DNA of 64,000 nt. Source: an uncultured delta proteobacterium. Its GTDB lineage: Bacteria; Desulfobacterota; Syntrophia; Syntrophales; UBA2185. The notes beneath the pieces were generated by a model. The model saw only the letters and a list, made by a program, of their open reading frames with translations. It was not told the origin of the DNA and did no database searches. Below, piece after piece: positions 10,189 to 61,406 of this stretch. Every line of letters starts with the position of its first letter. The first letter of the stretch is position 1. The DNA is taken from the NCBI GenBank assembly GCA_963695875.1, contig CAVOID010000005.1:128001-192000 (forward strand), written 5' to 3'. The translations under genes and the position numbers were made by a program.

Positions 10189-10214
10189 ATGTAAATAGCC
10201 GTGGAAGATCAGCC

Positions 10215-10925: not shown

Positions 10926-11113
10926 AATACCCTTCCTGTGAAATAGCCTCAGTTATTCCCCCTTTATGAAAGGGGAACTGCACAGTTTTTTATGGTTACG
11001 CGCTGGAGCCTGCCCTCGAATGCTTTTATCGGGGGCGGAACAAGTCTCATGCTTTATGGTACCGCCACTGTGAATGAATGTTTCCTGCAAAAACACATTC
11101 AAAGAATCACACT

Positions 11114-12271: not shown

Positions 12272-12377
12272 AAGAATGATACTCCTCCAGCGGGACAAAT
12301 AATGAACCAAAGCAGGACACGCGTTTTGCCTATCAGATTCAGAGATATATAAAAACTATCTCTATAATTTAATGTTA

Positions 12378-12427
12378 AAAATCCCCCCATCCCCCCCTTT
12401 CGCAAAGGTGGGGTTAGAGGGGATTTC
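12378..12427. repeat. REP-like palindromic element (AAATCCCCC...GGGGATTT)
   Basis: C-rich/G-rich inverted repeat around CCCCTTT...AAAGG; a related short copy lies at about 10955-10977. Confidence 0.55.
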
Positions 12428-12439
12428 GGGAGGTGCTTT

Positions 12440-13048
12440 ATGGCAAAAATCATTGATGCGAAAGGTCTGACCTGTCCGGAGCCCGTTATCCTCACCAAGA
12501 AAGCGCTGGAACAGCAGGATGACGTCATCGTTATCGTGGACGATGACATAGCCGTCGGAAACATTAAACGGCTGGGTGCGAAACTGGGACGTGCCATTAG
12601 TATTGAAAAGAAAGAAGGGGGAATTTCCCATATCCATATCTCCGGTAGTGTCGAGGCGGGGAAACAACCGGTTGCAGAAACTGACACCCCTCACTACGAA
12701 AGCTGCGGCCAGAATACCCTCGTAGTCGTCATATCTTCAGACCGGATGGGGCGGGGAGATGATGAATTAGGATATGTCCTTATCAGGAGTTTTATCCACA
12801 CCCTTCTTACTTTAAGCCCGCTCCCGGATACGATTATCTTCTACAACACCGGGGTTAAACTGGCGGCCAGGGATTCTGAGGTTATTGATGATCTGAAACA
12901 ATTAGAGAAGGCGGGCGTGTCCATTCTGGTATGCGGCACGTGCACAAATTACTTCGGCATTTCTAATGCACTCGGTGCAGGGTGCATCTCAAACATGTAC
13001 GACATCGCGAACACCATGGCCGGAGCGGGGAGGTTGATTACACCATGA
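12440..13048 (+). CDS. yedF: Sulfurtransferase-like selenium metabolism protein YedF (TusA + DsrE domains)
   Basis: IDAKGLTCPEPVILTKKAL, MGRGDDELG, FYNTGVKL, VCGTCTNY, ISNMYDI. Confidence 0.88.
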   Translation: MAKIIDAKGLTCPEPVILTKKALEQQDDVIVIVDDDIAVGNIKRLGAKLGRAISIEKKEGGISHIHISGSVEAGKQPVAETDTPHYESCGQNTLVVVISSDRMGRGDDELGYVLIRSFIHTLLTLSPLPDTIIFYNTGVKLAARDSEVIDDLKQLEKAGVSILVCGTCTNYFGISNALGAGCISNMYDIANTMAGAGRLITP

Positions 13049-13272
13049 ACAAGGCGGAAACATATGAAGTGGTCTTGTTCACATCGGTAAGTCATGCCCT
13101 GCGGGCGGAAAAAATTCTTAAAGAGGCAGGAATATCTTTTAAACTTATACCTGTTCCGCGTCACATCAGCTCTGATTGTGGGGTATGTCTCAGGTTTTCC
13201 CCGGCTTACAGAAAACAGATAGAAGAAGCCCTTGCGGGCAAAGTGGATGTTAGTGAAATTCGAGTCCTATAG
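13045..13272 (+). CDS. DUF3343-like protein
   Basis: FTSVSHALRAEK...IPVPRHISSDCGVCL; ATGA overlap with yedF. Confidence 0.85.
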   Translation: MNKAETYEVVLFTSVSHALRAEKILKEAGISFKLIPVPRHISSDCGVCLRFSPAYRKQIEEALAGKVDVSEIRVL

Positions 13273-13282
13273 AGCATGATCC

Positions 13283-13786
13283 TCATGCATTCTCCTTGGG
13301 CCCGCCGTTCCTTTGTTCATAATCCCTGATAGCTTCGAGCAATGCACTGGTACCTGAAAGAATACATTTAGCTTCGCGTCCGGGAATTCCCTCAAGAGCA
13401 AGGATAACATCAGCGTCGGTTATCCGTTTCGCCTCATCTATGGTTTTACCCCGGGCAAGAACTGTCGTCATGCTGCTTGTTGCAACGGCACCCGCACATC
13501 CGGAGGACAGGAATTTAATATCCGCAATTCTTCCTGAATCCACTTTAATCCACAACTTCATCCAGTCGCCGCAGGAGGGATCGCCGAGGTGGGCATATCC
13601 GTCAGCATGGGATATCTCACCAACATTACGGGGATTCGTAGAGTGGTCTGCCACCAGTTCGTTATAAAAAAGTACGGGACCATGGGGGAGCTCCATTCCC
13701 AGCTCCAGCTCCATATCTTCCGGTGTCTTTCTCCTATAGAGGTCCATCCAGTTATCAGATTTTCTCTTTGTTTGCCTTTGCCTCAT
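13283..13786 (-). CDS. NifU/IscU-like Fe-S scaffold
   Basis: NPRNVG, GDPSCGD, SGCAGAVATSS, third Cys in EAKC. Confidence 0.85.
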   Translation of the reverse strand: MRQRQTKRKSDNWMDLYRRKTPEDMELELGMELPHGPVLFYNELVADHSTNPRNVGEISHADGYAHLGDPSCGDWMKLWIKVDSGRIADIKFLSSGCAGAVATSSMTTVLARGKTIDEAKRITDADVILALEGIPGREAKCILSGTSALLEAIRDYEQRNGGPKENA

Positions 13787-15621: not shown

Positions 15622-16164
15622 ATGACAAAAGAGGAGAAGATCGAGGAAATCCGTCAGCGTGCCCGGAAGAATTTTTCACTGGGGTATAATTGCGCGGAAT
15701 GTGTAGCCGAAGCGGTCCTGAGTCTCGTGGAGACGGGATTGCCCAAGGAAGCAAAAAAGATGGCAACAGGATTTGGCGGCGGCATCGGGCTTTTCGGAGA
15801 CACTTGCGGCGCACTGGCAGGGGCAGTAATGGCTGTGAGTGCCGTACACGGAAGGGCTTCGCTTCCTGAAGGGACTGATCCCAAGGATGTGGCGATGAAG
15901 TCAAAGGCCCAGTTCTATGGCAAGCCAGGCGTTTACCGTATTTTCAACCAGGTCCCCAATCGCTTCAAGACTAAATACGGCAAGACCCTTTGCAGGGACT
16001 TGACCGTTCCATGGCAGAACACCTGGCTTTGCAAGGAACACGCGCTATACTGTCGTGAGATAATCACAGAAGCTGCTGGAATTGCGGCAGACCTTGTTCT
16101 TTCCGACAAGGACGAACTGGCGGCAAAGCCCTTCGGGGACAATGTAGAAAACCTCAAGGACTGA
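15622..16164 (+). CDS. C_GCAxxG_C_C family putative redox protein
   Basis: GYNCAE, GFGGGIG, TCGALAGA, LCRDL, YCREII. Confidence 0.9.
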   Translation: MTKEEKIEEIRQRARKNFSLGYNCAECVAEAVLSLVETGLPKEAKKMATGFGGGIGLFGDTCGALAGAVMAVSAVHGRASLPEGTDPKDVAMKSKAQFYGKPGVYRIFNQVPNRFKTKYGKTLCRDLTVPWQNTWLCKEHALYCREIITEAAGIAADLVLSDKDELAAKPFGDNVENLKD

Positions 16165-16226
16165 TTGAGCATGGGAGATGTAAGCAGACCGGATGTGCTT
16201 GACATGATAAACAGGGAGGACATCGC

Positions 16227-17561
16227 ATGAGTCAAAAACTGGTTATTGTAGGAGGCGGGGCGGCAGGCCCATCATCGGCTGCCGAAGCCAAGAGAAGAAA
16301 CCCGTCTCTTGAAGTGACGATGGTCGAGAAGGGTGACTTTGTTTCCTACGCGGCCTGACCGATGCCCTATTACATCGGTGATGTAATCAAAGAATCAAAG
16401 AAGTTGGTTATCCGCACGCCGGAAGAATTCAAGAAAACGGGCATCGACGTAAAGATCAAGACACGCGTGGATGGTATCGATACCAAAAAGGGTTCTCTTT
16501 CTTTATCCGACGGCACGAGTCTTCCTTACGACCTCCTGGTCATGGCTACGGGGGCCGAAGCGAGCCGCCTGGATATTCCGGGCAGAGACCTGGAAGGCGT
16601 CTACGTCTTCAGGGACTTGACCGATGCCTTGAAGATGAAATCCTACCTGAACGAACAGGGCTGTAAGAAGGCAGTTCTGATCGGGGCAGGCTATATCGGC
16701 ATGGAGATGTGCGAGGCCCTGAGAAATCTGGGGATCGAAGTGAAGGTCATGGACATCCTGCCCCGGCCCACCGTACGGTGGGATGCCGAATTCACGAAGA
16801 TGATCGTGGAAGAGCTAGCCAAGAACCAGGTGGAGTTCCTTCCGGAGACGAAACCTCTAGCCATCGAAAAGGGGAAGGAATACCGGTTGAAACTGCAAAC
16901 CAGCGGCGGCGAACTGGATGCCGATCTCGTGCTGATGGGAGTGGGTACAAAGCGGAACGCCGTGCTTGCCGAATCTATGGGACTTGCCTTGGGTGAAAGC
17001 GGCGCCATCAAGGTGGATTTCCGGCAGAAGACATCCCGGGAAGGGGTCTATGCGGTGGGAGACTGCTGTGAGGTCTTCCACAAGGTCGCCGGAAGATGGG
17101 TCTATTTTCCTCTCGGCGATGTCGCCAACAAGCAGGGTCGTGTTGCCGGTCAGAACATCGGCGGTTATCCGGCAGAATTCCCGGGTATCGTGGGCGCCCA
17201 GGCCTTCAAGGTCTTCAACCTGGAGGTGGCTGCCACGGGACTTACGGAAGAGGAAGCCGCAAAATACGGGTTCCAGCCGGTGAGCGCCATGATCTGGGGT
17301 CTTCCTGTCGGCCGTCCCATGGCGAAAGGTGAAAAGCTGGGCGTGAAACTTGTCGGTGACAAAACGACGGGAAAACTTCTCGGCGGCCAGTGCATCGGTG
17401 AGAAAGGGGCCGTTCAACGGGTCAGCAGCCTTTCTGTTGCCCTGTGGGCGGGACTTTCCGTGGACGAGATCGGCTACCTTGATCTCCCATACGCGCCGCC
17501 CTTCGGAGGCGCCTGGGACGCCATCCACATCGCCGCCCAGTCTCTCAGGGGAAAGATGTAA
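16227..17561 (+). CDS. Selenoprotein: FAD-dependent NADH oxidase / CoA-disulfide reductase family (U44)
   Basis: RBS GGAGG then MSQKLVIVGGGAAG...VSYAA-TGA(16356-16358)-PMPYY, in frame with ORF 16362. The paralog at 23455 has SYGACGLPY. Confidence 0.9.
16369..16387 (+). promoter_or_regulatory. Candidate SECIS hairpin
   Basis: ATTACATC-GGT-GATGTAAT, perfect 8-bp stem starting 11 nt after the TGA. Confidence 0.75.
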
Positions 17562-37679: not shown

Positions 37680-37797
37680 AAATGGTAAGATGACATCCTT
37701 CAAGGTAATGCTCAATATCTCATCCAAGGATCGTGAAGGGGCCTTACCAGTTTAGGTTCAAATATTTTGATGATTGGTTCGGGATACCAGAGGGATT

Positions 37798-38944
37798 TCA
37801 AACTCCATCCTGGATGTAATTGAAATCCAGTTTCATGGAAAGTTCCGCCTTTTCCAGTTCCTTCCCCAGATAGGCAGCATGAGAGAGCTGAGTAATCCAG
37901 CCTTTTTTTATGATTGTACGATACAGGCTCCTGGCATCTTTTCCTTCAACGACCCGAAGAAACCGGTTGTCATTGGTGTAGTGCTCGACCGAGATGATCC
38001 CTTTTCCTCGCATGGGAAGGATGACGAAGTATCCTGCCTTGTCCAGCTCCACCTTTGGTATTTCTTCCGCTTGAATGACTTCAATAGGGGCAATGGTCAA
38101 AGGTTTCACGACTCGGGCAAATTCTTTCTTACCACAGGAAAGGTGCATCTTCTTGGCAAAGGACCTGACGTTTCCTGCCACATGCTTGGCGTCCTCGCAT
38201 CCGATCATATCGACGACCTTGACCTGGTTGCGGAAGGCCTCCACTTCTTCCCGTGTGACATTCTTCAGGACCGGCCGCCTGCCCGGCGACCCGATCACTC
38301 TCATGCTCTCATCTACACCACTTTCACACAGGGATAGAAGTGTGGCGCCGCTTCGGTGACCCTCGGGGTCTTTGCCGGCGACAATCAGGATGTGTATGGA
38401 GGGGTTGGTGATTGTATTCTTGATAATCTTGTCAATGCCGATGTTTTCCGTTTCTGTCTTTCCGACGATGCAGAGATCCTTCGGTGCAAGACGGGCAAGT
38501 TCTCCTGCCAGGGAGATGCTTGACAGGGTGGAGACGGCAATATGGCAGGCCTGATTTTCACAGAGAACAAAATATTCGCCGGCCACGGGGGGCCAGGCAG
38601 CGGCCGTTACCTCAAGCTCGGCAACTGAGTGAAGCCGATTCCTCCATTCCGGGAAAGGCCTCAGGAAAAAGGTTCATCGCTACCGCCGGGTAGCAGTGCT
38701 CGCATCCCAGTCAGGTATACATACTCTCCTCAGTTTTCCCGAGCCAGGCTTCCACCTTCTCCCGAAGATCGCGAGCATCCTGATCCTTGGTGGCTGCCAG
38801 GTTGTCGCGGATTTCTTCCAATGCACCCTTCATGCAGCCGCACTTCCTGCACTTTGAAAGAGCGATGCCTTTTTCGAATTCGGATGTCAGTGTTTCCAGT
38901 TTTTCGCCCGTGGATATGTTTGTGTCCTTCTTGTCCTTGCTCAT
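37798..38944 (-). CDS. Probable selenoprotein (U78): Cys-rich domain + MtrA-like corrinoid domain + DUF4346-like domain; one +1 frameshift near 38620
   Basis: KCRKCGCM...YT-TGA(38713-38711)-LGCEHCYPA, then WPPVAGEY, TENIGIDKII.N.ITNPSI, EGHRSG, LDKAGYFVI, HAAYLGKELEKAE. Confidence 0.78.
38679..38694 (-). promoter_or_regulatory. Candidate SECIS hairpin
   Basis: Minus strand GCTACC-CGGC-GGTAGC, perfect 6-bp stem; loop G at +24. Confidence 0.5.
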
Positions 38945-38947
38945 TAT

Positions 38948-39163
38948 TTAGGTTTTCTCTTTCTTTAGCTTTTCAATTTCTTCCTTGAGTTCCCGCATCT
39001 CCTTCCTCAATTCATCCACTTCATCGTAGCTCCTGCCACGGCAAAAGAATCCGCGGCCACCGAAGAACTGGGCGAGAACGAAAAGTACCACAATCATGAA
39101 AATCAGGCCCATCAACGGAAACATGAACCATCCACCCCACATCGGAGGACCATTCCACCACAT
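38948..39163 (-). CDS. Small membrane protein (TM + coiled coil)
   Basis: RBS AAGGAGGTG; its stop lies 3 nt before the next start; similar to 61194-61406. Confidence 0.7.
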   Translation of the reverse strand: MWWNGPPMWGGWFMFPLMGLIFMIVVLFVLAQFFGGRGFFCRGRSYDEVDELRKEMRELKEEIEKLKKEKT

Positions 39164-39427
39164 ATTATTTCACCTCCTTGAGCCAATACCGCATAAACGG
39201 GGGCCACATGGGAAAGATGCCTATCTTCCCTTGAGCTCCTCAATAGGTTTTTCGTCATACATATAATAAGATTTCATTTACATAAACATTCACTTATAAA
39301 TTAAGCTTCGTATAATTGAGTGTCAAGAAGAACTTTGACAGAAGAATTTTACAGATGTCAGACAGGTTTGAAAAGGGGTCAGCAAGCACAAACCCAACAA
39401 ATGGAACCGGGCGCCTTTCCAGTCCGC

Positions 39428-42400
39428 TTATTCTTCGACTGCGAGGCTCAATTGTCCGTCTAAAGTTCGTGACCGTGGCACCTTCGGGGCTTCTCGTGCA
39501 GAAGCCGGCACAGGGGGAAGTTCCGACGCGGTGAAAAGCTCACTATCAAGAACGGCTTCAAGAAGCCGTTTCTGTTTCGCATACCCTGCCGTTGTATGCT
39601 CCAGGACCCAGAGCAATTCCAGAAGTTCTCGTGGTAAACTCGCGTGTCCAGACGCGAGGCCGGATATCGTCAAGGGGCGATGACTTTCTTCCCGCTCCGC
39701 TCCCTCATGCGATAGCCCAGCCATGACTGCAATACTTTCAGACCCGATACTTCAAACTCCCATACCTCGAGACGACACCGGGGCAAAAACGCCGTCGCCG
39801 ACATAGAGCTTCTTGCCGGTGTCTTCATAATAAAATTCATTCGGATACTTGTCTTCCTGATCGGAAACGGCCTTTATGCATTGAGCCTTGCCCTTCGGTA
39901 TCTGTCCTGCCGGATGGTCGGCGTCGTGCAATCGTTCGCCATAGGTATGCAGCCAGATCAATTCTTTGCCGAACTCCGATACCTTCGCAAAGAGTTTTTT
40001 GTCTTTCGTCAGAGGAACGCGCACTTCCTTGCTTGCAAGCTCGTCTGAGCAAATCGCCGCGTATATTCAGGCTGGGCCAAAACACCGTAAACATAACCAG
40101 CAAAATCTTCCGGCGTTACTGTTCGGCCAAATGATGTGCTTAGCATGTCCAAGCAAGCCAGGCAATATGTTCGGCTGTAGTGCATTCGCGTCACGATAAA
40201 GTGGCATGATCTCTTTAGCTCCAACTGATCCGCGAAAATGATGAAGGTCAGGGATATTTGCACTACACATGTCATTGCTGGACCATCGCCAAGTGGATGA
40301 TTGAACATAGCTTGATAGATATATTTGCTCGTTCACCATGTGCACCTGCCATAGCGGCGGGTCGCGGGCGTCGAAATCAGCGATCATCAGCAAGCAATAT
40401 ACTGTCGATCAAAAGAACGATAATGCATATCTGAACGATTTTATGTATTGGTTCATCTTGAGCCAATAACTTTATTGCGCTTGAGTTCTATACTCATCGT
40501 CAAATATGGTCTGCTGCTTCAAAGCAATTGTTCTGATCGCCGACTCTCCTTCATAGAGTTCTGCACGATTCAGTAGACCTCGAGGAGCGCCTTCCAACGA
40601 CTCTTCCAGAACATCTTTCGATGGTGCCACTGGCCAAGTACGTTTAGCTTTGAACACCGTTATTTTGCCACGGAAACAAATCTGTAAAGCTCGGCCACTC
40701 GTGCAAAGTCACTTGTTGACAACAGGTCTGAACGGCGCCTGCCAATCATCCGGGTACAGATCTCCCATTTCAGAGCACTACTCGATTTTACAGAATCAAG
40801 GGCTTCGAGCTTTTTCTCTCGTGTCCCTTCAATGCGCGTATATCGGACAACAGCCGGAGTATCGGGATTCGGCTTTGCTTTGCGCCACGCCACGAAGATT
40901 GCCACCGGCGTCTGAATGGCAAAGACATTTTCATCCTTCCGTGTCCCGCGTCCTTCCCCTCCCAGGTCGATGATATCTATATGATCGCAGATCCTGCGCA
41001 TGTGCTCGCGGACGCCGACAAAGGCGTCACCGTCGAGATAGGACGATGCGGTGATGAAGGACAGGATGCCGGGGCCTGTAGCGGTCTTGTGCTCGAATAC
41101 TTTCCAGAGGGACCAGCGGATGAAATAGACATAGAGGTTGTAAAGGTTCTTGAGATGGACGCCATAACCGGCTGTGCGGGCAGGTTTCAAGAAATCTTCA
41201 AGAATCGCAGAAGCTTCGTATTTCTCATCACCATAACGCACCCAGCCGCCGGTGATTGCCTTATTATCTCCGCTGCTCGCTTCATGCCGACCATAGGGCG
41301 GATTACCGAGACACACAAGGACATGTTCTGCGTCCTTGATCTTGAGCGCCCGTTCGTGTTCCTGCGCTATGGGCTTGTGAAACAGCGGCGGCGCAGGCGG
41401 GTCGTGTGAGGAGATTCAAGGGTGTTCGTGAGATAGATACCAGGACCGGTGGAAGGCAGAGATGATGCCCTGCTTGCTTAGGGCCTGCGAGAAACGCAGT
41501 TGCGCGACGGCGTACGGGCCGACCATCCATTCAAAGCCGTGGAGGTTATGGACCAGCGAACGAGCGCCGCCTTTTACCGCTCCCGGGCCTTCCTCCTTTT
41601 CCACCCGTGCAAGGGCATGATCGACAATACCAAGAAGATAGGTTCCGGTTCCGACCGCCGGATCAAGCGTTGAAACTCCGGCCTCAACAAATCCCATATC
41701 TTTACCAAGGTGCTTTTGCAGGATTTCGTCTATCAGCCGCACCTGACAACGGACGACTTCAAGCGGAGTAAAGTAAATGCCCGCCTCTTTGCGTAATTTA
41801 GGATCGTAGCTTGCAAGAAAGTCCTCATAGAAAAAAAGCCACGGATCTTTTGTCGCCGATGTCGCCTTGAGCAGATCAGGTGGTATCTCGTGGATAACAC
41901 GCTGTGTCATGCTGAGGGATGCGCTGATTTCCTTCCTTGCTTCCTTGTCGGTCAGGAATTCGAGCGATCGGGAAAGCAGCGAGTGATGATGTTCGAGCGT
42001 GTCGTAAGTCTTACGAAGGTCAAGAACATCCGCGCCTTCCATCTGCCCCAGCAGCAAGGCAAAGATGACCGTTTGGGCGTAGGCGTCGGCAAATTGCTCA
42101 TCGTTTGCGTCAGGGAAAAGGAGCGCCTTGATCTCAGTCTTGAGCGAGTGCATGGGCGAGGCAGTATCTTCGAGAGAGTCCAAGACCTCCTCGCGGATAA
42201 GGCGGCAGAAGGGAGCAAGGAAAGCAGCAAGCTCTTTCGGCTTCCTCGGGTACAATCGGCGTCCAGGTCGTAAAATCAGCAAAGAGCTGAAAAAGGTCTC
42301 TCGCGTTTGCTTCTGAGACAGCGTCCTTTCTGTCTGTGCGGATGTCTCCTGCAAAGCGGATGCGCTTTGCGAACAAGTCTCCATTCCGGTATAACGCCCA

Positions 42401-42772
42401 TTCGTTGCCGTCGGTATAGATAAGGTTTGGTACGTTCCGGAAACGTTTCCACTGGTCCCTGTCATGTCCCTTGAAAAGCTCCGGGTTCGCTCCCTTTCCG
42501 GGCGCCTTCAATTCAATGTAGCCGACAGGCAGGGTATCAATATGAGCCGCGAAATCAGGACGGCCCAACCTGCTGTGAAGGGTTGACTCTCCTTTCAGAA
42601 CGATATTGCGGGAAACGATTTTGCCGTAAGCGGCGAAAAGCTGGTCAACGGGAGATTTGAGCTGATCTTCCGGCTCGCCGGACGACCTCGCTGAAAACTT
42701 GGCCGTCAGCGATTGGGCAAAGACCTGCAAAGGCGCGTACATCTTTTCTTGTGGCGTAATGTTCTTGGGCAT
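39428..42772 (-). pseudogene. Fragmented type ISP/IIG-like restriction-modification enzyme (nuclease + N6-methylase + TRD)
   Basis: GRPDF...IELKAPGK, FYEDFLASYDP.LRK.GIYFTP, DPAVGTGTYL, GNPPY, NLYVYF, DLHHFRGS, RVPLTKD, spread over many frames. Confidence 0.85.
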
Positions 42773-50343: not shown

Positions 50344-51501
50344 TTGAACGGAAATCCCTCTATTAGATATCTCTTCCTGTCCTTCCTGCGACTCGGAATT
50401 ACATCTTTCGGTGGCCCTGCAATGGTGGCTCATATCAGGGAACTCTCTATCCGACGCAATAGATGGCTGGACGAAGCCGATTTTAAAAACGGCATCGCCC
50501 TCTGCCAATCCATACCGGGCGCTACCGTCATGCAGGTAGCCGCGTATGTCGGGCTCAAAGTTCGGGGAATCTTCGGGGCATTAGCTGCCTATATAGGTTT
50601 CGGATTACCGGCTTTTATCCTGATGTTGATTCTCTCGGCTTTATATGCCCGATTCAACAGCCTTCCAAAGTTCATCTCTTTGTTTAATGGCCTTCAGGTG
50701 ATCGTCGTTGCTATCATCTTTAACGCAGTCTTATCTTTTGGCAGGAATATCGTAAACGATTACAGGAGCATTATCGTTGCGCTTTTGTCTGCTCTCTTGT
50801 TCTGGCTGGGTATAAGTCCTTTTATAGTTATCGTTGGAGCCGGAATTCTTGGCATGAAGTTGTTTAGAATATCCGCCTCAAGCACAGCAGTCAATTCCGA
50901 AACAAAGGAAACAAAGTGGCATACCAAGCGAATCATTGTTCTCTTGGTCACTTTTTTTATCTGTCTTACCGGGCTGTATTTCGTAAACTCCACACTCTTT
51001 AGTATAGCGGCGGTCATGCTCAAAATAGACCTCTTCGCCTTCGGTGGCGGGTTTGCCTCTCTTCCGCTCATGCTTCACGAGGTTGTAATTAACAGGGGAT
51101 GGCTGGACAGCAAGACCTTTATGGACGGAATAGCCCTCGGCCAGGTGACACCGGGCCCCATCGTTATTACAGCGGCCTTTGTGGGATATTTGGTCTATGG
51201 GATTCTCGGTGCGATTGTTGCGGCAATCGCTATATTTACACCTTCATTCTTCCTTTTGGTTACCATTGCACCATTTTTTGATCGTCTGAAGAATTCCGTA
51301 TATTTTATGAGGGCGATAGATGGCATTTTCGCATCCTTCGCAGGACTTCTCTTATATGTTTGTATCAAATTCGCGGTGACTGTACCGTGGGACATCGTAA
51401 GGATTTTATTGGTTCTTGCGGCATTAGCCGCCCTGCTTCGAAGGATAGACATACTTTATATAGTGCTGGGTGGGGCGCTTATTTCTATATTCTTTTTGTA
51501 A
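50344..51501 (+). CDS. chrA: Chromate efflux transporter (long-chain CHR)
   Basis: SFGGP, QSIPG, AFGGG, GQVTPGP. Confidence 0.9.
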   Translation: MNGNPSIRYLFLSFLRLGITSFGGPAMVAHIRELSIRRNRWLDEADFKNGIALCQSIPGATVMQVAAYVGLKVRGIFGALAAYIGFGLPAFILMLILSALYARFNSLPKFISLFNGLQVIVVAIIFNAVLSFGRNIVNDYRSIIVALLSALLFWLGISPFIVIVGAGILGMKLFRISASSTAVNSETKETKWHTKRIIVLLVTFFICLTGLYFVNSTLFSIAAVMLKIDLFAFGGGFASLPLMLHEVVINRGWLDSKTFMDGIALGQVTPGPIVITAAFVGYLVYGILGAIVAAIAIFTPSFFLLVTIAPFFDRLKNSVYFMRAIDGIFASFAGLLLYVCIKFAVTVPWDIVRILLVLAALAALLRRIDILYIVLGGALISIFFL

Positions 51502-51674
51502 GTCTGACGAGACAAAATAAATATCATTCTTATTCTTCTTTAGTAAATCAAATTTAATTCAGTATTAAGTGTTTCGAATAGAACTACCGCAGCTAAACAG
51601 TCAGATATGTCCGTGCAATCTTCCTTATATAATTGAAATGGGATTCGGTTATCGAAAGCAAAATAGAAAAACCC

Positions 51675-51720
51675 TTGACAAAAATAATATGACTACATAT
51701 ATTGCCTGTTAGCAATATAT
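51675..51720 (+). promoter_or_regulatory. -35 box and ArsR operator
   Basis: TTGACA at 51675; perfect inverted repeat ATATATTGC-N6-GCAATATAT at 51697-51720. Confidence 0.78.
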
Positions 51721-51727
51721 AGGAGCT

Positions 51728-52081
51728 ATGACCATGAAAGATTTTATTCGGGTCATGAAGGCCCTCTCCGATCCCAACCGGGTGAAGATCATTAAGATCC
51801 TGCAAGAACGTGTTATGTGCGTCTGCGAGATTCAAGCGGCCCTGCGTTTAGCCCAGCCGACCATATCTAAGCACCTGAAGGTCCTGGAGGATGCGGGACT
51901 CGTAAACCACAGTAAAGAGGGATTGTGGGTCAACTATTCCATTACCGATGGCGCACGGAGTTCCTATGCGGCAAGTCTCCTTGGACAAATGCGCCACTGG
52001 CTCTCTGAAGACCCGGGGATCAAGAGGCTTCTCAGCTGCCTTGACGAGATTCAGCGGGAAGACATCTGCAAGAGGCCATGA
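51728..52081 (+). CDS. arsR: ArsR/SmtB regulator
   Basis: KALSDPNR, MCVCEI, QPTISKHL. Confidence 0.92.
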   Translation: MTMKDFIRVMKALSDPNRVKIIKILQERVMCVCEIQAALRLAQPTISKHLKVLEDAGLVNHSKEGLWVNYSITDGARSSYAASLLGQMRHWLSEDPGIKRLLSCLDEIQREDICKRP

Positions 52082-52184
52082 AAGCTTAAGTAAATTACCT
52101 TTTGGAAATATGATAATAAGCAGGGGATGCTGACAACAGCATTTTGGGTTGGAATACGACAGACATTGAGAGGAGATGCGTTTT

Positions 52185-52418
52185 ATGGAAATCAAGATTT
52201 TAGGGCCTGGATGCGCGAAATGCCATCAGGTGGAAAAACTAGTCAAAGAAACGCTCGCTGAGACGGGCGCAGATGCAAATGTCGAACATGTAACTGATTT
52301 CAAGAAGATCGCTGAGTACGGAGTTTTTAGCACGCCGTCGGTGGTCGTGGATGGCAAGGTCAAATCAGTGGGCAAGATTCCGAAAAAAGAAGAAATCAAG
52401 ACCTGGATCGGGAAGTGA
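52185..52418 (+). CDS. Small redox-active disulfide protein (MTH895-like thioredoxin)
   Basis: IKILGPGCAKC, YGVFSTP. Confidence 0.9.
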   Translation: MEIKILGPGCAKCHQVEKLVKETLAETGADANVEHVTDFKKIAEYGVFSTPSVVVDGKVKSVGKIPKKEEIKTWIGK

Positions 52419-52547
52419 TTATGAGAATCGTTTAACCCGTCATTCCTTGCTTGACATGGGATCCATGGCCACAGGGTTGGATTCCCGCCGGATATCGCCC
52501 TCGTTAAAGCGCGGGTGGAAATAACATTTCTGTTGGAGATTCACTTT

Positions 52548-53498
52548 ATGATTCAAGCTTTTGCCGACTGGCTCACCTATAACGTATTCAAGATGACCGC
52601 TGGCGCCCATCTTACCGACGCTGTCAATTTCTTCGTCTATGACACCATCAAGATCATCCTGATGCTGACGGTGATCATCTATATTGTGTCCATTATCAGG
52701 AGCTTTTTTCCACCGGAGAAGGTGAAGAACGTCCTGGCCAGAAAGTCGGAATTTGTGGGAAACATTCTGGCGTCCATGCTGGGAATTGTCACTCCTTTTT
52801 GCTCCTGTTCAGCAGTACCGGTTTTCATCGGTTTCCTGGAGGCGGGCGTCCCCCTGGGTGTAACGCTATCATTTCTGATCGCCTCGCCGATGATCAATGA
52901 AGTAGCCTTGGTACTACTCTGGGGCCTCTTCGGCGCCAAGATTGCCTTGATCTATATAGGGACAGGGATGGCCGTGGCTATCACGGCCGGCTTTATCCTG
53001 GGACGTATCCCCGCCGTGGAAAAGATGGTCGAGGATTACGTCTGGGAGATACGGATGGGGGTGGTGGAAGTGCCGGAACTGACCTGGAAGGACCGCTTCG
53101 AGCAGGCTCGCTTTCACACCCAGGATATCCTGAAGCGGGTCACCCTTTACGTCATCCTGGGCATCGGCGTCGGGGCGCTCATTCACGGTTATGCGCCAAT
53201 TGACTTCGTGGCGAAATATGCCGGGCGGGACAACCCCTTTGCTGTTCCACTGGCCGTCCTGATCGCCATCCCTCTCTATTCAAACGCTGCCGGGACGATC
53301 CCCATCGTTCAGGCTTTGATGGGCAAGGGGATGCCGCTGGGTACCGTACTGGCCTTCATGATGGCCATCACGGCCATTTCTTTCCCGGAAATGGTCATCC
53401 TCAGGAAGGTATTGAAAGTCAAACTGCTGGTGATCTTTACTCTCATTATGACGGTAGCCATCATCTTGGTGGGCTACCTTTTCAATGCAATCATTTAA
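52548..53498 (+). CDS. ArsP/DUF318-family permease
   Basis: TPFCSCSAVP, SPMINE, PLYSNAAG, SFPE. Confidence 0.9.
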   Translation: MIQAFADWLTYNVFKMTAGAHLTDAVNFFVYDTIKIILMLTVIIYIVSIIRSFFPPEKVKNVLARKSEFVGNILASMLGIVTPFCSCSAVPVFIGFLEAGVPLGVTLSFLIASPMINEVALVLLWGLFGAKIALIYIGTGMAVAITAGFILGRIPAVEKMVEDYVWEIRMGVVEVPELTWKDRFEQARFHTQDILKRVTLYVILGIGVGALIHGYAPIDFVAKYAGRDNPFAVPLAVLIAIPLYSNAAGTIPIVQALMGKGMPLGTVLAFMMAITAISFPEMVILRKVLKVKLLVIFTLIMTVAIILVGYLFNAII

Positions 53499-53513
53499 AC
53501 GAGGATGTTATTT

Positions 53514-53747
53514 ATGGAAACTAAAATCTTAGGACCTGGATGTGCCCGGTGCAAACAGGTGGAGAAGATTATCAGAGAAGTACTTACCGAAACCGGCGTG
53601 GAAGCAATTGTTAATAAGGTGAAGGACTTTGAGTAGATAGCTGTCTATGGCCTCTTCGGCACACCGACGGTGGTCATCGACGGAGAAGTCAAGTCCGTGG
53701 GTAAGATTCCAAAGAAGGAAGATATTCTAAAGTGGATCAAGAAATAG
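53514..53747 (+). pseudogene. Second MTH895-like thioredoxin with in-frame TAG at codon 41
   Basis: METKILGPGCARC...KDFE-TAG(53634)-IAVYGLFGTP...KWIKK, colinear with 52185-52418. Confidence 0.85.
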
Positions 53748-53839
53748 GTAAAACCTTATTTACCCGGCAAGCCTCGAAACCCTGTCTCCTCAGGAGCCTA
53801 GAAAAGCATTAGCAAGACACTGCACAAAAGGAGGAAGGT

Positions 53840-53983
53840 ATGTACGAAAAAGTTGTTATTGTTTCGGATCTTTCCGAGGCTACAAGCCATGTAATCAACT
53901 GCGTCCAGGATCTCAAGAAAATGGGAACGAAAGATGTCATTCTTTTCCATGCGCGAGATTTCGCTGATAATGAGGTGGAATAG
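53840..53983 (+). pseudogene. Universal stress protein N-terminal remnant
   Basis: RBS then MYEKVVIVSDLSEAT...VILFH, stop after 47 aa. Confidence 0.6.
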
Positions 53984-53986
53984 CAC

Positions 53987-55036
53987 ATGGCGATAGCAGC
54001 AATGCGGTCGTACTTGGTTCATCATTTTAAGAAATGGTGGGAACTCGAGTGGATGCCCTGGCTTGATTGGATACAGCTTGAGGTTACCTCGCGGTGTAAC
54101 GCTACCTGTACATACTGTCCGAGAACCGTCTATCACTCTCAATGGGAGAGCAGGGATATTTCCCTCGATACCTTCGAGAGGCTTTTACCTGTTTTCACCA
54201 AGACGAAGATGGTGCATCTGCAGGGGTGGGGCGAACCGTTGCTGTATAAGCACTTTTTTGACATCGTCGCCCGTGTAAAAAAAGCAGGATGCGAGGTGGG
54301 TATGACCACAAATGGGATGCTGCTCAACCGCCAAGAAATCAACAGGCTAGTCGCTAGCGGCATCGACCATGTTGCGTTCTCCTTGACCGGTATCGGTGAG
54401 AAGAACGACACCGTCCGAAAAGGGACAGACTTCAGAAAGATACTTCAGGCCATCTCCGATCTCAATGCTGAGAAAAAAGCCCTTCACGTCGAAACCCCGA
54501 TGGTCAACGTGGCTTATCTGCTTCTCCGTTCTCACCTGTCAGACATCGACGATATCGTCCCAATGATTGCGGGACTTGGGATACAACACTTGATCATCAG
54601 TACCCTTGATTTCGTCCCGAGCAAAGACCTCCAGAAGGAGCAACTTATGCCACGGGACGAGAGGGAATACCGCGAAATGAAATCCTTCCTGGATAGACTG
54701 GTGATGGCAGGTAAACAAGCAGGGGTCAGTATCTCTTACCGCCTGGTCTCCCCGGGAAAGAGAAACAGGACCTGCACGGAGAACGCCGAGCGAAGCCTGT
54801 TTGTGTCAGCAGACGGGACTGTCTCGCCGTGTGTATTCATGAATATCCCTGCCTCTGAAGCATTCCATACGGTACGGGGGTGTGAGCATGAATACCGCCA
54901 GCTCACTTTCGGCACAGTGGCCGAGACATCGACGCCGGCCATCTGGTTGAGCAGGCGCTACACTACGTTCAGAGATTCCTTTGATTCGGCGCTTCACCCC
55001 TTCTGTCAGGAATGCCCGAAGCTCTATGAGTCCTGA
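53987..55036 (+). CDS. Radical SAM / SPASM(twitch)-domain protein
   Basis: CNATCTYC, QGWGEP, C...DGTVSPC...CQEC. Confidence 0.9.
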   Translation: MAIAAMRSYLVHHFKKWWELEWMPWLDWIQLEVTSRCNATCTYCPRTVYHSQWESRDISLDTFERLLPVFTKTKMVHLQGWGEPLLYKHFFDIVARVKKAGCEVGMTTNGMLLNRQEINRLVASGIDHVAFSLTGIGEKNDTVRKGTDFRKILQAISDLNAEKKALHVETPMVNVAYLLLRSHLSDIDDIVPMIAGLGIQHLIISTLDFVPSKDLQKEQLMPRDEREYREMKSFLDRLVMAGKQAGVSISYRLVSPGKRNRTCTENAERSLFVSADGTVSPCVFMNIPASEAFHTVRGCEHEYRQLTFGTVAETSTPAIWLSRRYTTFRDSFDSALHPFCQECPKLYES

Positions 55037-55161
55037 GATAGCGATGAAGAAAGGGAAAATAGTTGTGAGTGAAACATGGTGTCCGGCGAACGATCATGAG
55101 AGACAGGCTGATTGAGCATCGGTTTTTTAACGTTCTGAATAATACAGTTGAGGTTTTATCT

Positions 55162-55549
55162 ATGAGTGTAAAACGAGTTTCAGCGATTATCACTGTAATC
55201 CTTTCCATCCTTTTATTCGTCGCTGCGGTTGCGCCATCTTTTTCTGCCGAGTTTAAAAACATCCCCGTAGCAGGGCATGGTGACTATGGTGGACCTGGGA
55301 GCAACTAAATGCATTCCCTGCAAGATGATGGCCCCCATCCTTAAAAAACTGGAAAATCGTTATGCGGGAAAGGCGGCTATTGTTTTCCTGGACGTGTGGG
55401 AAGACCCAAAGCCGGCGTACCACTTTGGAATTCGGATCATACCTACACAGATTTTCTTCAATAAAAGAGGAGAAGAAGTGTATCGCCACGAAGGTTTCAT
55501 GAGCGAGGAGGAGATCGTGGCCATCCTACAGAAATTGGGTGTGACCTGA
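55162..55549 (+). CDS. Exported thioredoxin, +1 frameshift at about 55274
   Basis: Signal peptide in one frame, DLGATKCIPCKMM...IPTQIFF...HEGF in the next. Confidence 0.82.
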
Positions 55550-55554
55550 GGGAG

Positions 55555-56269
55555 ATGAGCATGCTGGAGACGTTTTTTATTACGGTGAATCAATGGCTCA
55601 CAGGGTCACCCCTGCTGGCTTCTGCGGGAAGCTTCCTCTGGGGGATGATCAGCGTCCTGTTCAGCCCCTGCCATCTGGCCTCGATTCCCTTGATCGTCGC
55701 CTATGTAGGGGGACAGGAAGCGGCTCTGAAACCCCGGCAGGCTGCACATTACGCCATCGCTTTTACCCTTGGCCTGTTTATCACCATCGCTGTGATCGGC
55801 ATTGTCTGCGCCTTCCTGGGCCGGATGTTAGGCGACGTCGGGAATTACTGGCAGATACTGGTTGGCCTGATCCTTTTCTGGGTCGCCCTGGGCATGATGG
55901 GGGTTGAAGCATGCTCCGCCTCCGGCAGCCTTCTCTACCGTCTCAACCTGCGGGGGATATGGGGTGCCTTTGGACTGGGTCTGGCTTATGGTGTGCTGTC
56001 CGGCTCCTGCACGTTCGGCTTCATCGCGCCCATTCTTGGCGATCATTACCATTCAGCAGAAAGTGACCATCGGCATCCTTTTCATCACGCTGTTTGCCCT
56101 CGGTCACTGCCTTCCCATCGTGATAGCGGGCAGTTCCACGGCCATGGTGAGAAAACTGATCGAAAATCAGACCTGGCAGGGGGCGGGTTTGTGGTTCCGC
56201 AAAGGCGCCGGGGCACTCATCGCTGTTTTGGGGATCTATTTTATCGGCAATCCTTTTTGGGGAAATTAA
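55555..56269 (+). CDS. CcdA/DsbD-like membrane disulfide transporter, +1 frameshift at about 56038
   Basis: SPCHLASIPL and GSCT..F.APIL; TM segments resume in the shifted frame. Confidence 0.82.
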
Positions 56270-56596
56270 ATGAAAGAAAAGATCATGATCTACGGAACAG
56301 ACACCTGACCCTTCTGCAACCAGGCTCGGGCAGCCTACGGCGACAGGGCCATCTATATCAATGTCAATGAAGACCCGAAGAGACTTGAGGAAATGCTGGT
56401 CTATTCTGGCGGCAAGATGCAGGTACCCGTGATTGTGGAAGGCAACAAGGTCTCTGTCGGTTTCGCCGGGGATATTTCCCTGCGCGGTGGCATCCCCATT
56501 TTCGGAGGCACCTGACCGGTGAAACGGCCCCTCGGTGAGGGGGAAAAAAGCAGAAAAACAAATATATTCAGGAAGGAGGCTTATTTGCATGTTTAA
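56270..56596 (+). CDS. Glutaredoxin-like selenoprotein with UPFC and a C-terminal GGTU (Uxx-star-like); ends at 56515 if the second TGA is a stop
   Basis: MKEKIMIYGTDT-TGA(56306)-PFC...QVPVIVEG..V.VGF...GGT-TGA(56513)-PV; absent from the ORF track. Confidence 0.85.
56322..56336 (+). promoter_or_regulatory. Candidate SECIS hairpin (U13)
   Basis: AGGCT-CGGGC-AGCCT; loop G at +20. Confidence 0.55.
56528..56542 (+). promoter_or_regulatory. Candidate SECIS hairpin (U82)
   Basis: CCCCTC-GGT-GAGGGG; loop G at +19, same loop and spacing as 16369-16387. Confidence 0.7.
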
Positions 56597-57365
56597 ATCC
56601 ATCGGTTTTATCGGGGGCGGAAGGGTTGCCAGGATTATCCTGGGCGGTTTGGAACGGAAGAAGAAGTGGCCCGGCAAGGTGATCGTCAGCGACGCCAATG
56701 CCGATGTTCTGAAAGATCTGCAAAAGCGATTCCCGAAGATTGAGGCGGCAGGTGATGATCCTAAGAAACCCGCTGCCACCGATGTGGTTTTCCTTGCCCT
56801 CCATCCACCGGCGATCATGGGAATTCTCGGCGAAGTGAAATCAAAGCTCCGCCGGGACGCGATTGTCGTTTCCCTGGCCCCGAAAGTATCCATCTCTCAG
56901 ATTTCCGGTGGACTTGACGGATTTTCCCGTATCGTCCGGATGATTCCCAATGCGCCGGCGGTCGTGAATAAAGGATTCAATCCGCTGGCGTTCTCCGCCG
57001 TATTTCCAAAGGACGAGAAGAAAAAACTGCGCACATGGTTCAATGTCCTGGGAGACTGCCCCGAAGTGGCGGAAGAAAAACTGGAAGCCTACGCCGTGAT
57101 CACCGCCATGGGACCGACTTATTTCTGGTTCCAGTTCTATGAACTGGAGGAACTGGGAAAGACCTTCGGTATGACCCCGAAAGAGGCAAAAGAAGGTCTG
57201 GCGAAAATGATGAAGGGCGCTCTCAAGACCATGACCGATTCCGGTTTGTCCCCCAGCGAGGTTATGGATCTGATCCCCGTAAAACCCCTCGGTGAGGAAG
57301 AGGCAAACATCCGGAACATTTATCGCACAAAGCTCCAGGGATTGTACAGCAAACTGAAAGGATAA
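56589..57365 (+). CDS. Pyrroline-5-carboxylate reductase-like NAD(P)-binding protein
   Basis: [26 protein letters not shown]. Confidence 0.8.
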
Positions 57366-57385
57366 ATCATAATAAAGGGTGCACC

Positions 57386-57700
57386 ATGAATCCTTCCGAT
57401 CAGGATCCCTACATGATTCTTGGCCTCTCACCGGGTGCAACGGAAAAACGGAGCAAGAAGGCCTATCGCCGTCTTGCTATGAGATTTCATCCGGACAAAA
57501 ACCAGGATGATCCTGAAGCTGAAAAAAAATTCAAAGAAATACAATGGGCATACGAGAGCCTCCGGAGAAACAAAAGGCCTCAGTCTGTTCCACCGGATGC
57601 CGCCCCGCAAGAGCACCCATTATCTGATTCCACAGATCCGTTTTTCAACTTCTTCACGGCTTTGAGATCGCATTACACGAAGAAGAAAGATGGTAAATGA
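57386..57700 (+). CDS. Small J-domain (DnaJ) protein
   Basis: DPYMILG, AYRRLA..FHPDKN, FKEI..AYE. Confidence 0.85.
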
Positions 57701-57765
57701 GGTTCATCGGATGGCTTCCGTGGCTTACACACAAGTAAAAAAGGTAGATCATGTAGGAGTGATAT

Positions 57766-58194
57766 ATGTCTGTGCCGACAGAAAAGAAAAGAGTGCTGTT
57801 CATCTGCACTCATAACGCTGCCCGCTCCCAGATGGCCGAGGGTCTTCTTCGTGCCCTTCACGGGGACCGTTATGAAGTCTTCAGCGCCGGCACGGAACCG
57901 GACAGGGTGAGCCCGTACGCAATCAGGGTGATGGATGAAATCGGAATAGATATCAGTAATCACCGATCCAAGAATGTGACTGAATTCCTGGATCAGAAAT
58001 TCGACTATGTGGTTCCTGTTTGTGATAGTGCGAACGAGTCCTGCCCCTATTTCCCCGGCGGCAAAAAAATCCTTCACCAGAGCTTTGAAGATCCTTCCGC
58101 CCTGACCGGGACAAAAGAGGAAATCACGGCAGGTTTTCGACGCATCCGCGATGAAATCAGGAGCTGGATAGAATATGAATTCATCAAATTGTAA
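57766..58194 (+). CDS. arsC: Arsenate reductase, thioredoxin-coupled LMW-PTPase type
   Basis: FICTHNAARSQMAEG, VCD.A.ESCP, FEDP, FRRIRDEI. Confidence 0.92.
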   Translation: MSVPTEKKRVLFICTHNAARSQMAEGLLRALHGDRYEVFSAGTEPDRVSPYAIRVMDEIGIDISNHRSKNVTEFLDQKFDYVVPVCDSANESCPYFPGGKKILHQSFEDPSALTGTKEEITAGFRRIRDEIRSWIEYEFIKL

Positions 58195-58224
58195 TTGAAA
58201 AAAATAAGCAGAAAGGATGGATAT

Positions 58225-59318
58225 ATGTCAGATGGTATTGTGAAGAGGTTGTCGTTTCTTGATCGGTTTCTGACTATCTGGATTTTTTTGGCGATAGGAG
58301 CGGGAATCGCAATCGGTTTTTTTCTCCCGGGAGTATCAACCTTCATTACCGGCATGCAGGTTGGTACAACATCCATCCCTATTGCTATCGGGCTGATTTT
58401 GATGATGTACCCACCATTGGCCAAGGTGAAGTACGAGGAGATGGGCAAGGTATTCCGTCATAAGCGTCTGCTCTGGCATATCGCTGCTGCAGAACTGGGT
58501 CATCGGACCTCTCCTCATGTTTATTCTGCGCCATCATCTTTCTGCGGGACTACCCGGAGTACATGATAGGCGTCATCCTCGTGGGCCTGGCGCGCTGCAT
58601 CGCCATGGTGATCGTGTGGAACGAACTGGCCGAGGGCGACCGTGAGCTCGCCGTTGGCCTGGTGGCCTTCAATGCAGTCTTCCAGGTTCTCTTCTATGCC
58701 GTATACATTTTTGTATTCATAACCATCGGCCTCAACTATCTTGGCCTGGTCAAGGGGCTGAACGTGAGCATCTCCATCGCAGAGGCTGCCAAGACCGTGT
58801 TCATCTACCTGGGCATCCCGTTTATCGCAGGGGTCGTCACCCGGTTCAGCCTGCTCAGGGCCAAAGGCAAAGAATGGTATGAGAACGTTTTTACTCCGAC
58901 AATCAGCCCGCTGACACTCATTGCCCTTCTCTTCACCATTATCGTCATGTTCTCACTCAAAGGACAATACATCGTACAGCTTCCACTGGATGTTGTTCGC
59001 ATAGCTATTCCGCTTACGATCTACTTCTTCCTTATGTGGTTCTCGACCTTCATCATCGCTTACAAGATCCGGGCAAATTATGCGCAGACCGCCACAGTCT
59101 CCTTTACTGCGGCGAGTAATGACTTCGAGCTGGCCATCGCTGTTGCCGTTGCCATCTTCGGGATCCACTCCGACCAGGCCTTTGCAACGGTCATCGGCCC
59201 CTTGCTGGAGGTGCCCGTGCTCATCAGCTTGGTGAACGTCGCCATGTGGCTGCGAAAGAAGTACTTTCCCCACGCTGTAGAGACAGCGGAAGGGATCTGC
59301 TACCTCAGTTGTAAATGA
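58225..59318 (+). CDS. acr3: Acr3 arsenite efflux pump, two +1 frameshifts (about 58474 and 58529)
   Basis: [25 protein letters not shown] (middle frame), [23 protein letters not shown]. Confidence 0.9.
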
Positions 59319-61193: not shown

Positions 61194-61406
61194 TTATCTT
61201 CCTTTTATTTTGCTGAACTCTTCTTTCAGTTCCCTGATTTCTTTTTTCATCTCTTCAAGATCAGTGGGATGGGTGCTGCCCCAACAGCAGAAACGCCCAC
61301 CGGCAAATCTCGATCTGAAAAAGAGGCACATAATTATGCACAATGCTAGAAGGATTATCGGTACCACCCACCACCAGGCCCACACGGGCCACGAGGCAGT
61401 TTCCAT
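61194..61406 (-). CDS. Small membrane protein (TM + coiled coil)
   Basis: Similar to 38948-39163. Confidence 0.65.
   Translation of the reverse strand: METASWPVWAWWWVVPIILLALCIIMCLFFRSRFAGGRFCCWGSTHPTDLEEMKKEIRELKEEFSKIKGR

Follow-up and report, generated by a model that had tools for sequence, protein, structure and literature searches.

Can a cysteine-rich reading frame that stops at a TGA, and a corrinoid-type reading frame that lies one base out of phase with it, be parts of a single gene, and what would the product of such a gene do? This question is raised by positions 37798 to 38944 of a 64,000-nucleotide stretch of DNA (hereafter the window, whose numbering we use) from an uncultured delta proteobacterium of the Syntrophales (GenBank assembly GCA_963695875.1, contig CAVOID010000005.1, positions 128,001 to 192,000). 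A first-pass annotation had described the locus as an MtrA-like corrinoid protein fused to a metal-binding domain containing selenocysteine (Sec, U). We consider it highly probable that the minus strand from 38944 to 37798 holds one Sec-containing gene. As an explanation of the whole, we lean towards a Sec-containing corrinoid protein that carries out methyl chemistry on metals or metalloids (metal(loid)s).

One three-domain gene on the minus strand

The 77-codon open reading frame (ORF) at 38944..38711 (minus strand) begins with an ATG at 38944 and ends in a TGA at 38713-38711. When this TGA is read as U, the same frame continues, as described at first pass, and gives U-LG-C-EH-C-YPAVAMNLFPEAFPGMEESASLSCRA, with U-LG-C-EH-C-YPAVAMN at the start of the read-through; it reaches a stop at 38614-38612. 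A second frame, offset by one base from the N-terminal one, is open over 38673-37801 (minus strand, 291 codons) and contains the strings TENIG, NPSI and EGHRSG. Once a spurious base at 38619 is removed, the two frames form one gene (37798..38944, minus strand) of 381 sense codons and a TAA stop, matching the approximately 381 residues estimated earlier; the residue numbers U78, Glu166 and His196 refer to this reading. The unit is supported by ORFs, Pfam, NCBIfam, homologs and metagenome contigs. Pfam, alignment and a structural model divide the product, on our reading a soluble protein, into a helical Cys-rich N-terminal domain (N-domain), an MtrA-type corrinoid domain and a DUF4346 domain.

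The extra base, which lies at 38619 between SLSC and LEV, is an assembly error and not biology. We placed Logan contigs from three runs of three studies (X1, X2 and X3; peat 2019 and two freshwater sediments 2025) on 37700-39200, and all three lacked one letter at 38619. They differ from the window at other sites and therefore come from other strains. In a protein search, SLSC-x-FEV-x4-WPPV was unbroken in 13/13 longer homologs (twelve with lengths of 367-389 aa, the other with 537 aa). In the window, SLSC and LEVTAAAWPPV stand in different frames, and removing 38619 yields SLSC-Q-LEV. The NF002128 profile (390 positions) is likewise matched in order, at 9-100 by the first piece and at 106-369 by the second. 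The same assembly (16 contigs, 82.6% complete) has rpoB in 3 pieces, rpoC in 5 and selB in 2 frames, the multi-frame matches lying at C7:169299-173366, C16:58223-60865 and C9:79843-81742. Single-base indel errors are thus frequent, and an apparent frameshift or split gene anywhere in this genome should be checked against reads. We assign the base at 38619 to assembly error because it is missing from three metagenomes and because the assembly is rich in frame breaks; the same two facts rule out a programmed +1 frameshift at SLSC/LEV. The extra base noted at first pass is therefore present in the assembly, but the metagenome contigs expose it as an error.

The TGA most likely encodes selenocysteine

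When one genome of each species was scanned, 104 related stretches were confirmed; the 80 loci retained span many phyla of bacteria and archaea. The gene forms an unbroken single frame in 76 of these 80, which bears out the proposed fusion of the N-domain to the MtrA part. At the column of the window's TGA (38711..38713, minus strand, read as U78), the 76 unbroken loci carry 64 Cys and 12 TGA, and the four frame-broken loci carry three Cys and one TGA (L077). Overall, the column is Cys in 67/80 and TGA in 13/80 loci, with no other state, the pattern for which a check of position 78 had been suggested. The 13 longer metagenome homologs all carry Cys there. The idea that the TGA might be unique to this assembly is refuted by the 13 loci of other species and by X3, a contig (38542-38728) whose only differences are the change at 38682 and the gap at 38619, so that its TGA is kept. 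The X1 contig (38194-38992) has no change at the TGA among the nine listed of its 13 differences and is slightly less certain than X3.

The TGA forms fall into two clades, each with 100% support in the Shimodaira-Hasegawa-like approximate likelihood ratio test, in a quick IQ-TREE tree of 74 rows for which the careful search is unfinished. The first, which is Syntrophaceae-type, takes in the C-terminal part of the window's protein, most similar to L079 (69% identity). The second, Clostridium/Sedimentibacter, includes the isolate Sedimentibacter saalensis DSM 13558 (L091). On this tree the column would need two state changes, and a single origin would be compatible with the well-supported branches. 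The Cys codons after the UGA stay in frame, with UGC/UGU changes between members of the Sec clades, and the gene is otherwise intact in 12/13 TGA loci of other species.

Searching the N-domain profile against 1.84 billion representative proteins gave 377 matches at E <= 0.001. Among 22 short matches examined, 17 end at the residue just ahead of the Sec column (…Y-T/S/N/K/G), as expected of ORFs cut at a TGA. Three members of a distinct N-domain subgroup (P0097, P0129 and P0133) end in Y-A/T-C, one residue past the usual Sec column; judged from the protein sequences, they may have been cut at the end of a contig, or there may be a second Sec position that forms a C-U pair.

The genome also encodes the machinery for Sec. 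It contains selA (609 bits), a Sec-type selenophosphate synthetase gene, selD (395 bits), that itself has an in-frame TGA, a tRNA-SeC(tca) on contig C6, and selB, split in two frames like other genes of the assembly. The selD gene lies at C5:126708-127637, about 400 bases before the window start. The formate dehydrogenase alpha subunit (FDH-alpha) genes of the genome also have an in-frame TGA. We conclude from these sequence data that the TGA at 38713-38711 most likely encodes selenocysteine.

The hairpin after the UGA

A SECIS-like (selenocysteine insertion sequence) hairpin with a CGGC loop lies at 38675..38698 (minus strand). Its stem UGCUACC/GGUAGCG has seven base pairs plus two outer pairs, and its loop begins 22 nucleotides (nt) past the UGA. 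All 14 TGA forms (13 loci and the window) have a hairpin at the same place, 19-22 nt past the UGA, of a Syntrophaceae type (UGCUACC-CGGC-GGU(A/G)GC) or a Clostridia type ((C)UGCU-GGUC-AGCAG). The GGUC loop of the latter presumably resembles the GGUC loop of fdhF. Codons under the hairpin are unusually constant in both types when only positions with an invariant amino acid are compared, with p values that are optimistic since clade members are related: 7/8 were identical in the Syntrophaceae type versus 69/216 elsewhere (Fisher p = 0.0025; four of six loci, L060 and L077 left out and the window not included), and 3/3 in the Clostridia type versus 22/151 elsewhere (Fisher p = 0.0039; six of seven loci, L092 left out). 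The lone variable codon under the hairpin (GUA/GUG) preserves its base pair. This codon identity supports selection on the RNA, as judged from sequence comparison.

Several results on the same hairpin count against the Sec reading. The window's hairpin is no better than chance, with z = -0.50 for an 81-nt stretch and 54/200 shuffles folding at least as well. Sec and Cys forms have similar stem lengths (medians 6.5 versus 5.5, Mann-Whitney U p = 0.41), and in folding energy (p = 0.042 over 36 nt, p = 0.10 over 60 nt) the Cys forms fold about as well. An Rfam scan of 38560-38800 (E <= 10) gave chance matches only (JUMPstart, E 1.3; DicF, E 6.5). Moreover, the X1 and X3 contigs carry A>C (plus strand) at 38682, which changes Val88 of PAVAMN to Gly and disrupts the middle pair of the drawn stem; when paired by hand, a different register, in which an A bulges out and the loop becomes GGC, could bring seven pairs back. 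The Cys forms are hairpin-like probably because the codons of C-Y-P-A-V-A are self-complementary. Since Cys forms fold alike and the window's hairpin does no better than shuffles, the hairpin alone proves nothing, and we did not accept it as proof of a SECIS. The perfect downstream hairpin reported at first pass is thus present at 38698-38675, but it does not discriminate Sec from Cys forms.

A Cys/Sec domain joined to a corrinoid domain

The N-domain carries two triads, motif 1 (C32-R-K-C35-G-C37, 38834..38851, minus strand) and motif 2 (U78-L-G-C81-E-H-C84, or C/U-x2-C-x2-C, 38693..38713, minus strand). The resulting six-position pattern, CxxCxC then C/UxxCxxC, is invariant in 68 aligned homologs together with one Met and one Tyr. 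In an AF2 model, the domain is a helical bundle (predicted local distance difference test 86.6, predicted template modelling score 0.79) whose motif loops would touch through a bridge from residue 26 (a motif 1 Cys) to residue 67 (two before the Sec column). Foldseek comparison of this model with the PDB returned nothing below E 2.9, a wide VIA-align search gave generic helical bundles (best Z 5.5) and no convincing fold, and residues 1-100 of the Cys homolog P0002 had no usable match in the ESM Atlas. A Pfam scan of 30 profile matches found the N-domain only with MtrA and DUF4346: 17 matches had MtrA, five of these also had DUF4346, and 13 were short and without a family. The sole other domain in these 30 architectures was an ArsR helix-turn-helix (HTH) fused N-terminally in P0044 (506 aa). 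In P0006/P0031 (537 aa), a four-helix membrane protein with a GCCGSP motif is fused N-terminally to the whole three-domain protein. We regard metal binding at the Cys/Sec site, whichever the metal, as likely.

The call of an MtrA domain and a DUF4346 domain was upheld by hidden Markov model searches. The MtrA-type domain (38149..38604, minus strand; Rossmann-like) matches PF04208 with 115.4 bits against a cut-off of 25 (E 2.9e-33) and PDB 5l8x at 1.2e-39. The model of a homolog superposes on 5LAA_B, a cobalamin-bound MtrA homologue, with Z 23.1 and a root-mean-square deviation of 2.0 A over 153 residues at 39% identity. In the accessible part of PMC4915002, His84 of MtrA is the cobalt ligand and Glu54 hydrogen-bonds this His. 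The G-H motif His of the window (CAC, His196, 38356..38358, minus strand) aligns with His84 and the T-E-N motif Glu (GAA, Glu166, 38446..38448, minus strand) with Glu54; both are invariant in the 68 homologs, in line with the role of cobamide ligand that had been assigned to the GH-motif His. The protein thus very probably binds a corrinoid.

The DUF4346 domain (PF14251, 'PterinBD-DUF4346'; 37807..38046, minus strand) covers profile positions 1-86 of 86 with 79.1 bits against a cut-off of 29.6 (E 4.4e-22), and the C-terminal region of TIGR00284 matches at 1.2e-17. In the full homolog model this part gave only Z 6.2-6.5 to small ribosomal proteins, which is uninformative. The linker between the MtrA and DUF4346 domains, a low-confidence region, has an extra S-C-x-C-x-E-C in many Cys forms and one Cys in the window.

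The protein does not reach the level of the mtrA equivalog TIGR01111 (106.7 bits against a cut-off of 249.15), and its two NF002128 pieces (308 and 75.9 bits) remain below the 568-bit cut-off. In 60 related genomes, NF002128 was found only once, as a contig-end fragment in G021, and never above cut-off. Pfam (E <= 1) gave MtrA, DUF4346 and one chance match in the protein, and no CFeSP-type (corrinoid iron-sulfur protein) corrinoid domain. As stated at first pass, no mtr genes occur among the gene's neighbours in the window.

Genes around the locus and its homologs

Directly upstream, a 71-codon ORF (38948..39163, minus strand) encodes one transmembrane helix and a coiled coil and stops 3 nt before the gene's ATG. 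It also lies upstream of the gene in L059 and L060, and given this it is probably co-transcribed with the gene. A second copy of its coiled-coil part, 44% identical, lies at about 61203-61343 of the window (minus strand; C5:189203-189343). A contig of the X1 metagenome joins 37761 to 39164 with 37 other letters between, dropping exactly the 71-codon ORF and the gene (37762-39163); the pair is therefore a cassette that is present or absent among close strains.

Around the gene, the window encodes an RND efflux system, a YgaP-like membrane protein, OsmC and a CpxP/ZraP-like protein; further away are a chromate transporter and an arsR-arsP-arsC-ACR3 set. The first-pass annotation had spoken of an ars/chr/merB-like neighbourhood; ars and chr genes are there, 11.5-20 kb from the gene, but none of 61 window ORFs scanned was merB-like. 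The region at 50344-59315 (plus strand) holds the chromate transporter, ArsR, an ArsP permease, a radical SAM/SPASM protein, a DsbD-like membrane protein, a low-molecular-weight-phosphatase-type ArsC and an ACR3-type SBF, the last split in two frames at 58563.

Two other features of the window were observed. A Type ISP / Eco57I-like restriction-modification gene at 39431-42772 (minus strand) lies in at least five ORF fragments and is either decayed or broken by assembly indels. A sulfur/selenium-trafficking cluster at 7610-13786 and 15622-17558 comprises a rhodanese, a radical SAM protein with DUF3641 and DUF3047, a cysteine desulfurase, TusA-DsrE, NifU, a C_GCAxxG_C_C protein and a pyridine nucleotide-disulfide oxidoreductase. 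Several families of this cluster are listed as selenoprotein families in PMC13188914.

Among the homologs, 37/76 loci have a metal-type neighbour cluster within 3.5 kb, this and the following figures being raw counts of loci that share context among kin and are not independent. ArsR-family genes lie upstream on the same strand in 16/76 loci. Other neighbours include P-type ATPases (5 loci), DUF302 (5), ArsP (4), CsoR (3) and CDF genes (6, four of them Sec-type). A membrane protein with the GCCGSP motif is near the gene in 10 loci (upstream in eight; median gap 3 nt), and a membrane-anchored protein of unassigned family in 11. In particular, a MerB (3.4e-30) is encoded directly upstream of the archaeal homolog L052 (L052:3294-3974), and an Anaerolineales locus has the order arsD-gene-arsA (L083:3570-6983). 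Elsewhere, the gene directly adjoins an ACR3-type SBF with a thioredoxin (L054), MIP (L069) or S-adenosylmethionine (SAM) methyltransferases (L016 and L049).

Comparison with known systems

For residues ~105-265, the protein shares its fold and family with the cytoplasmic MtrA homologues and with MtrA of the Mtr complex (PDB 5LAA, 5L8X, 8Q3V, 9QTQ; PF04208). Unlike MtrA of the Mtr complex, it has no membrane anchor and no mtrB-H genes nearby, and unlike methanogen MtrA, it carries two additional domains and is found in metal-resistance islands of bacteria from many phyla. Its database family in the broad sense is NF002128 (PRK00964.1-6), whose profile spans all three domains in order. The name of this model, 'tetrahydromethanopterin S-methyltransferase subunit A', is transferred and not function-tested, the GenBank name is 'DUF4346 domain-containing protein', and the model does not flag selenocysteine.

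CFeSP (AcsC/AcsD) is alike in being a corrinoid methyl carrier with an N-terminal Cys-rich metal domain. Its Cys spacing and B12 fold are unlike those of the MtrA-like protein, and we found no match to CFeSP by sequence (Pfam) or by structure (Foldseek/VIA of the N-domain). HgcA/HgcB offer an analogy in working principle only: a corrinoid methyl group meets a soft metal whose ligand is Cys or, in certain lineages, Sec. Both HgcA and HgcB have catalogued Sec forms (PMC13188914), and control of HgcA/HgcB by an ArsR-like regulator is reported in the accessible part of a preprint (bioRxiv 10.1101/2022.10.17.512643). The corrinoid fold of HgcA is unrelated; Pfam finds only MtrA and DUF4346 in the present protein; the Cys/Sec residues here are on a separate helical domain and not on a cap helix; and most members lack the ferredoxin partner or membrane domain of HgcA/HgcB. 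With the MerT-like, MerB-like SaoL, HgcA/B, MbdU and E1-E2 ATPase selenoproteins, the protein shares a Sec/Cys pair in a Cys motif, an in-ORF hairpin just past the UGA and a heavy-metal context; unlike them, it has an N-domain without a recognised fold. The UxxCxxC spacing of motif 2 is also that of GrdB (PMC13188914).

Proposed metal(loid) methyl chemistry and its alternatives

How could a Cys/Sec domain and a corrinoid domain work together? The two Cys triads of the N-domain may fold into one six-thiolate site, which here would consist of five thiolates and one selenolate and would act beside the upper face of the corrinoid. This site may hold a soft metal(loid), for example As(III), Sb(III) or Hg(II)/CH3Hg+, or may itself be the nucleophile. 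A methyl group would then move between Co and the bound species, in methylation or demethylation, with MtrA and DUF4346 as a methyl-carrier module loaded or unloaded by a further partner. The physiological role would be metal(loid) handling under ArsR/SmtB-type control. We tentatively favour methyl transfer between cobalt and a soft metal(loid), or a thiolate or selenolate of the N-domain, because the layout is that of a Cys6/Cys5Sec site linked to a His-on corrinoid carrier with metal-sensing repressors nearby. Some members also have a Cys-rich membrane protein and a membrane-anchored protein encoded upstream. In mer operons, metal uptake is followed by hand-over through Cys pairs and transformation in the cytoplasm, and the layout here recalls this logic. 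The more specific proposal of methyl transfer to or from a toxic metal(loid) is tentative, its metal(loid) part coming from the gene neighbourhood.

Some observations weigh against this explanation. No metal-type neighbour was found in 39/76 loci, and the non-independence of loci tempers the counts where one was found. The nearest ars genes in the window are 13 kb off, and in a Nitrospirota group the gene precedes parA-parB instead. In the genome (82.6% complete) we found no mtrH, in line with the earlier statement that other mtr genes are missing. Lastly, the C-x2-C-x2-C-x-P triad presumably also resembles a [4Fe-4S] motif.

This last point leads to the alternative that survives best, although we judge it improbable: the six-Cys N-domain would hold an Fe-S cluster that reactivates Co(II) to Co(I), as in the corrinoid iron-sulfur protein, an ordinary organic compound or a thiol would serve as methyl substrate, and the metal islands would reflect regulation or redox stress only. 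The second motif, C/U-x2-C-x2-C-x-P, resembles ferredoxin-type cluster motifs, and thioredoxin, DsbD-like, OsmC and ferritin-like neighbours are also seen. Corrinoid proteins with an Fe-S domain or partner are known, namely CFeSP and HgcA with HgcB (accessible part of PMC7305189), predicted selenoproteins with Sec in Fe-S-type motifs have been catalogued (PMC13188914), and a metallocluster lies beside the corrinoid of MtrA in the anaerobic Mtr structure, according to the part of that source available. However, the invariant Cys number is six, not four. The fusion partners seen, a Cys-rich membrane protein and an ArsR HTH, point to a metal(loid) as the ligand, as do the arsD/arsA flanks and the MerB encoded directly upstream. 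The N-domain model also had no match to an Fe-S domain (Foldseek E >= 2.9; VIA Z 5.5), which is weak evidence.

Less probable still, and in our view quite unlikely, is that the protein is not an enzyme at all but a metal/B12 sensor, a chaperone or a co-regulator of ArsR/CsoR-type repressors, with the corrinoid domain as ligand sensor. The ArsR-family genes directly upstream in 16/76 loci, the CsoR-type genes in three, the ArsR HTH fused to the N-terminus of P0044 and the absence of a catalytic partner encoded nearby at most loci would fit such a role. Yet the aligned homologs all keep the cobalt His/Glu pair that typifies catalytic base-off/His-on methyl carriers, Sec is normally found at reactive sites (PMC13188914), and a DNA-binding domain occurred in only 1/30 architectures checked.

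Finally, it is very unlikely that the gene is a dead pseudogene in this strain, with the TGA a nonsense codon and the frameshift real, or that the TGA is a true stop between two proteins: two disruptions do fall in one gene of the assembly, Cys codons are one step from TGA, an ATG (Met90) lies 12 codons after the TGA and Sec-clade members stand in public records as shortened proteins of 268-297 aa, but the TGA recurs at 13 loci of other species in two clades with downstream Cys codons in frame, 12 of these 13 genes are otherwise intact, the frameshift is missing in three metagenomes while essential genes of the assembly are broken likewise, and Sec machinery is present in the genome.

Implications for the family

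The claim that this is not a described selenoprotein family agrees with the literature we covered. Table 1 of a 2026 review (PMC13188914; 119 families and subfamilies) has no entry for MtrA, PF04208, PF14251 or NF002128, and the family is likewise absent from the main texts of the Haft preprint, BSepDB and deep-Sep. Our literature search found no paper on DUF4346 and none linking the family to selenoproteins, arsenic or methylmercury. The NCBI records of the Sec clades amount to 75-82% of the read-through protein and are named 'DUF4346 domain-containing protein' or 'Tetrahydromethanopterin S-methyltransferase'. This is most likely a selenoprotein family that annotation pipelines cut in two, and whose public Sec-clade records are without the whole Cys/Sec domain.

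With over 1,800 database proteins matching at E <= 1e-20, the gene provides a testable lead for a widespread uncharacterised corrinoid protein of many bacterial and archaeal phyla. Cys forms are found in cyanobacterial genomes, including records without a metagenome-assembled-genome label such as Thermostichus vulcanus; together with the cultured Sec carrier Sedimentibacter saalensis DSM 13558, they make experiments possible.

The ArsR, ArsD/ArsA, MerB, CDF and P-type ATPase neighbours point to B12-dependent chemistry on toxic metal(loid)s. To our knowledge, enzymes for merB-independent demethylation and for methylation by routes other than ArsM and HgcAB are still sought. A bolder reading, which we offer as doubtful but possible, is that the family is a hitherto unrecognised B12-dependent enzyme moving methyl groups on and off toxic metal(loid)s at a Cys6/Cys5Sec site, a second corrinoid route to methylated arsenic, antimony or mercury that does not depend on HgcAB or ArsM. 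If this is true, the enzyme working backwards would account for the missing merB-independent ('oxidative') demethylation of methylmercury or methylarsenite in anaerobes, and the family would have spread by horizontal transfer through the metal-resistance islands of bacteria and archaea, gaining Sec at least twice.

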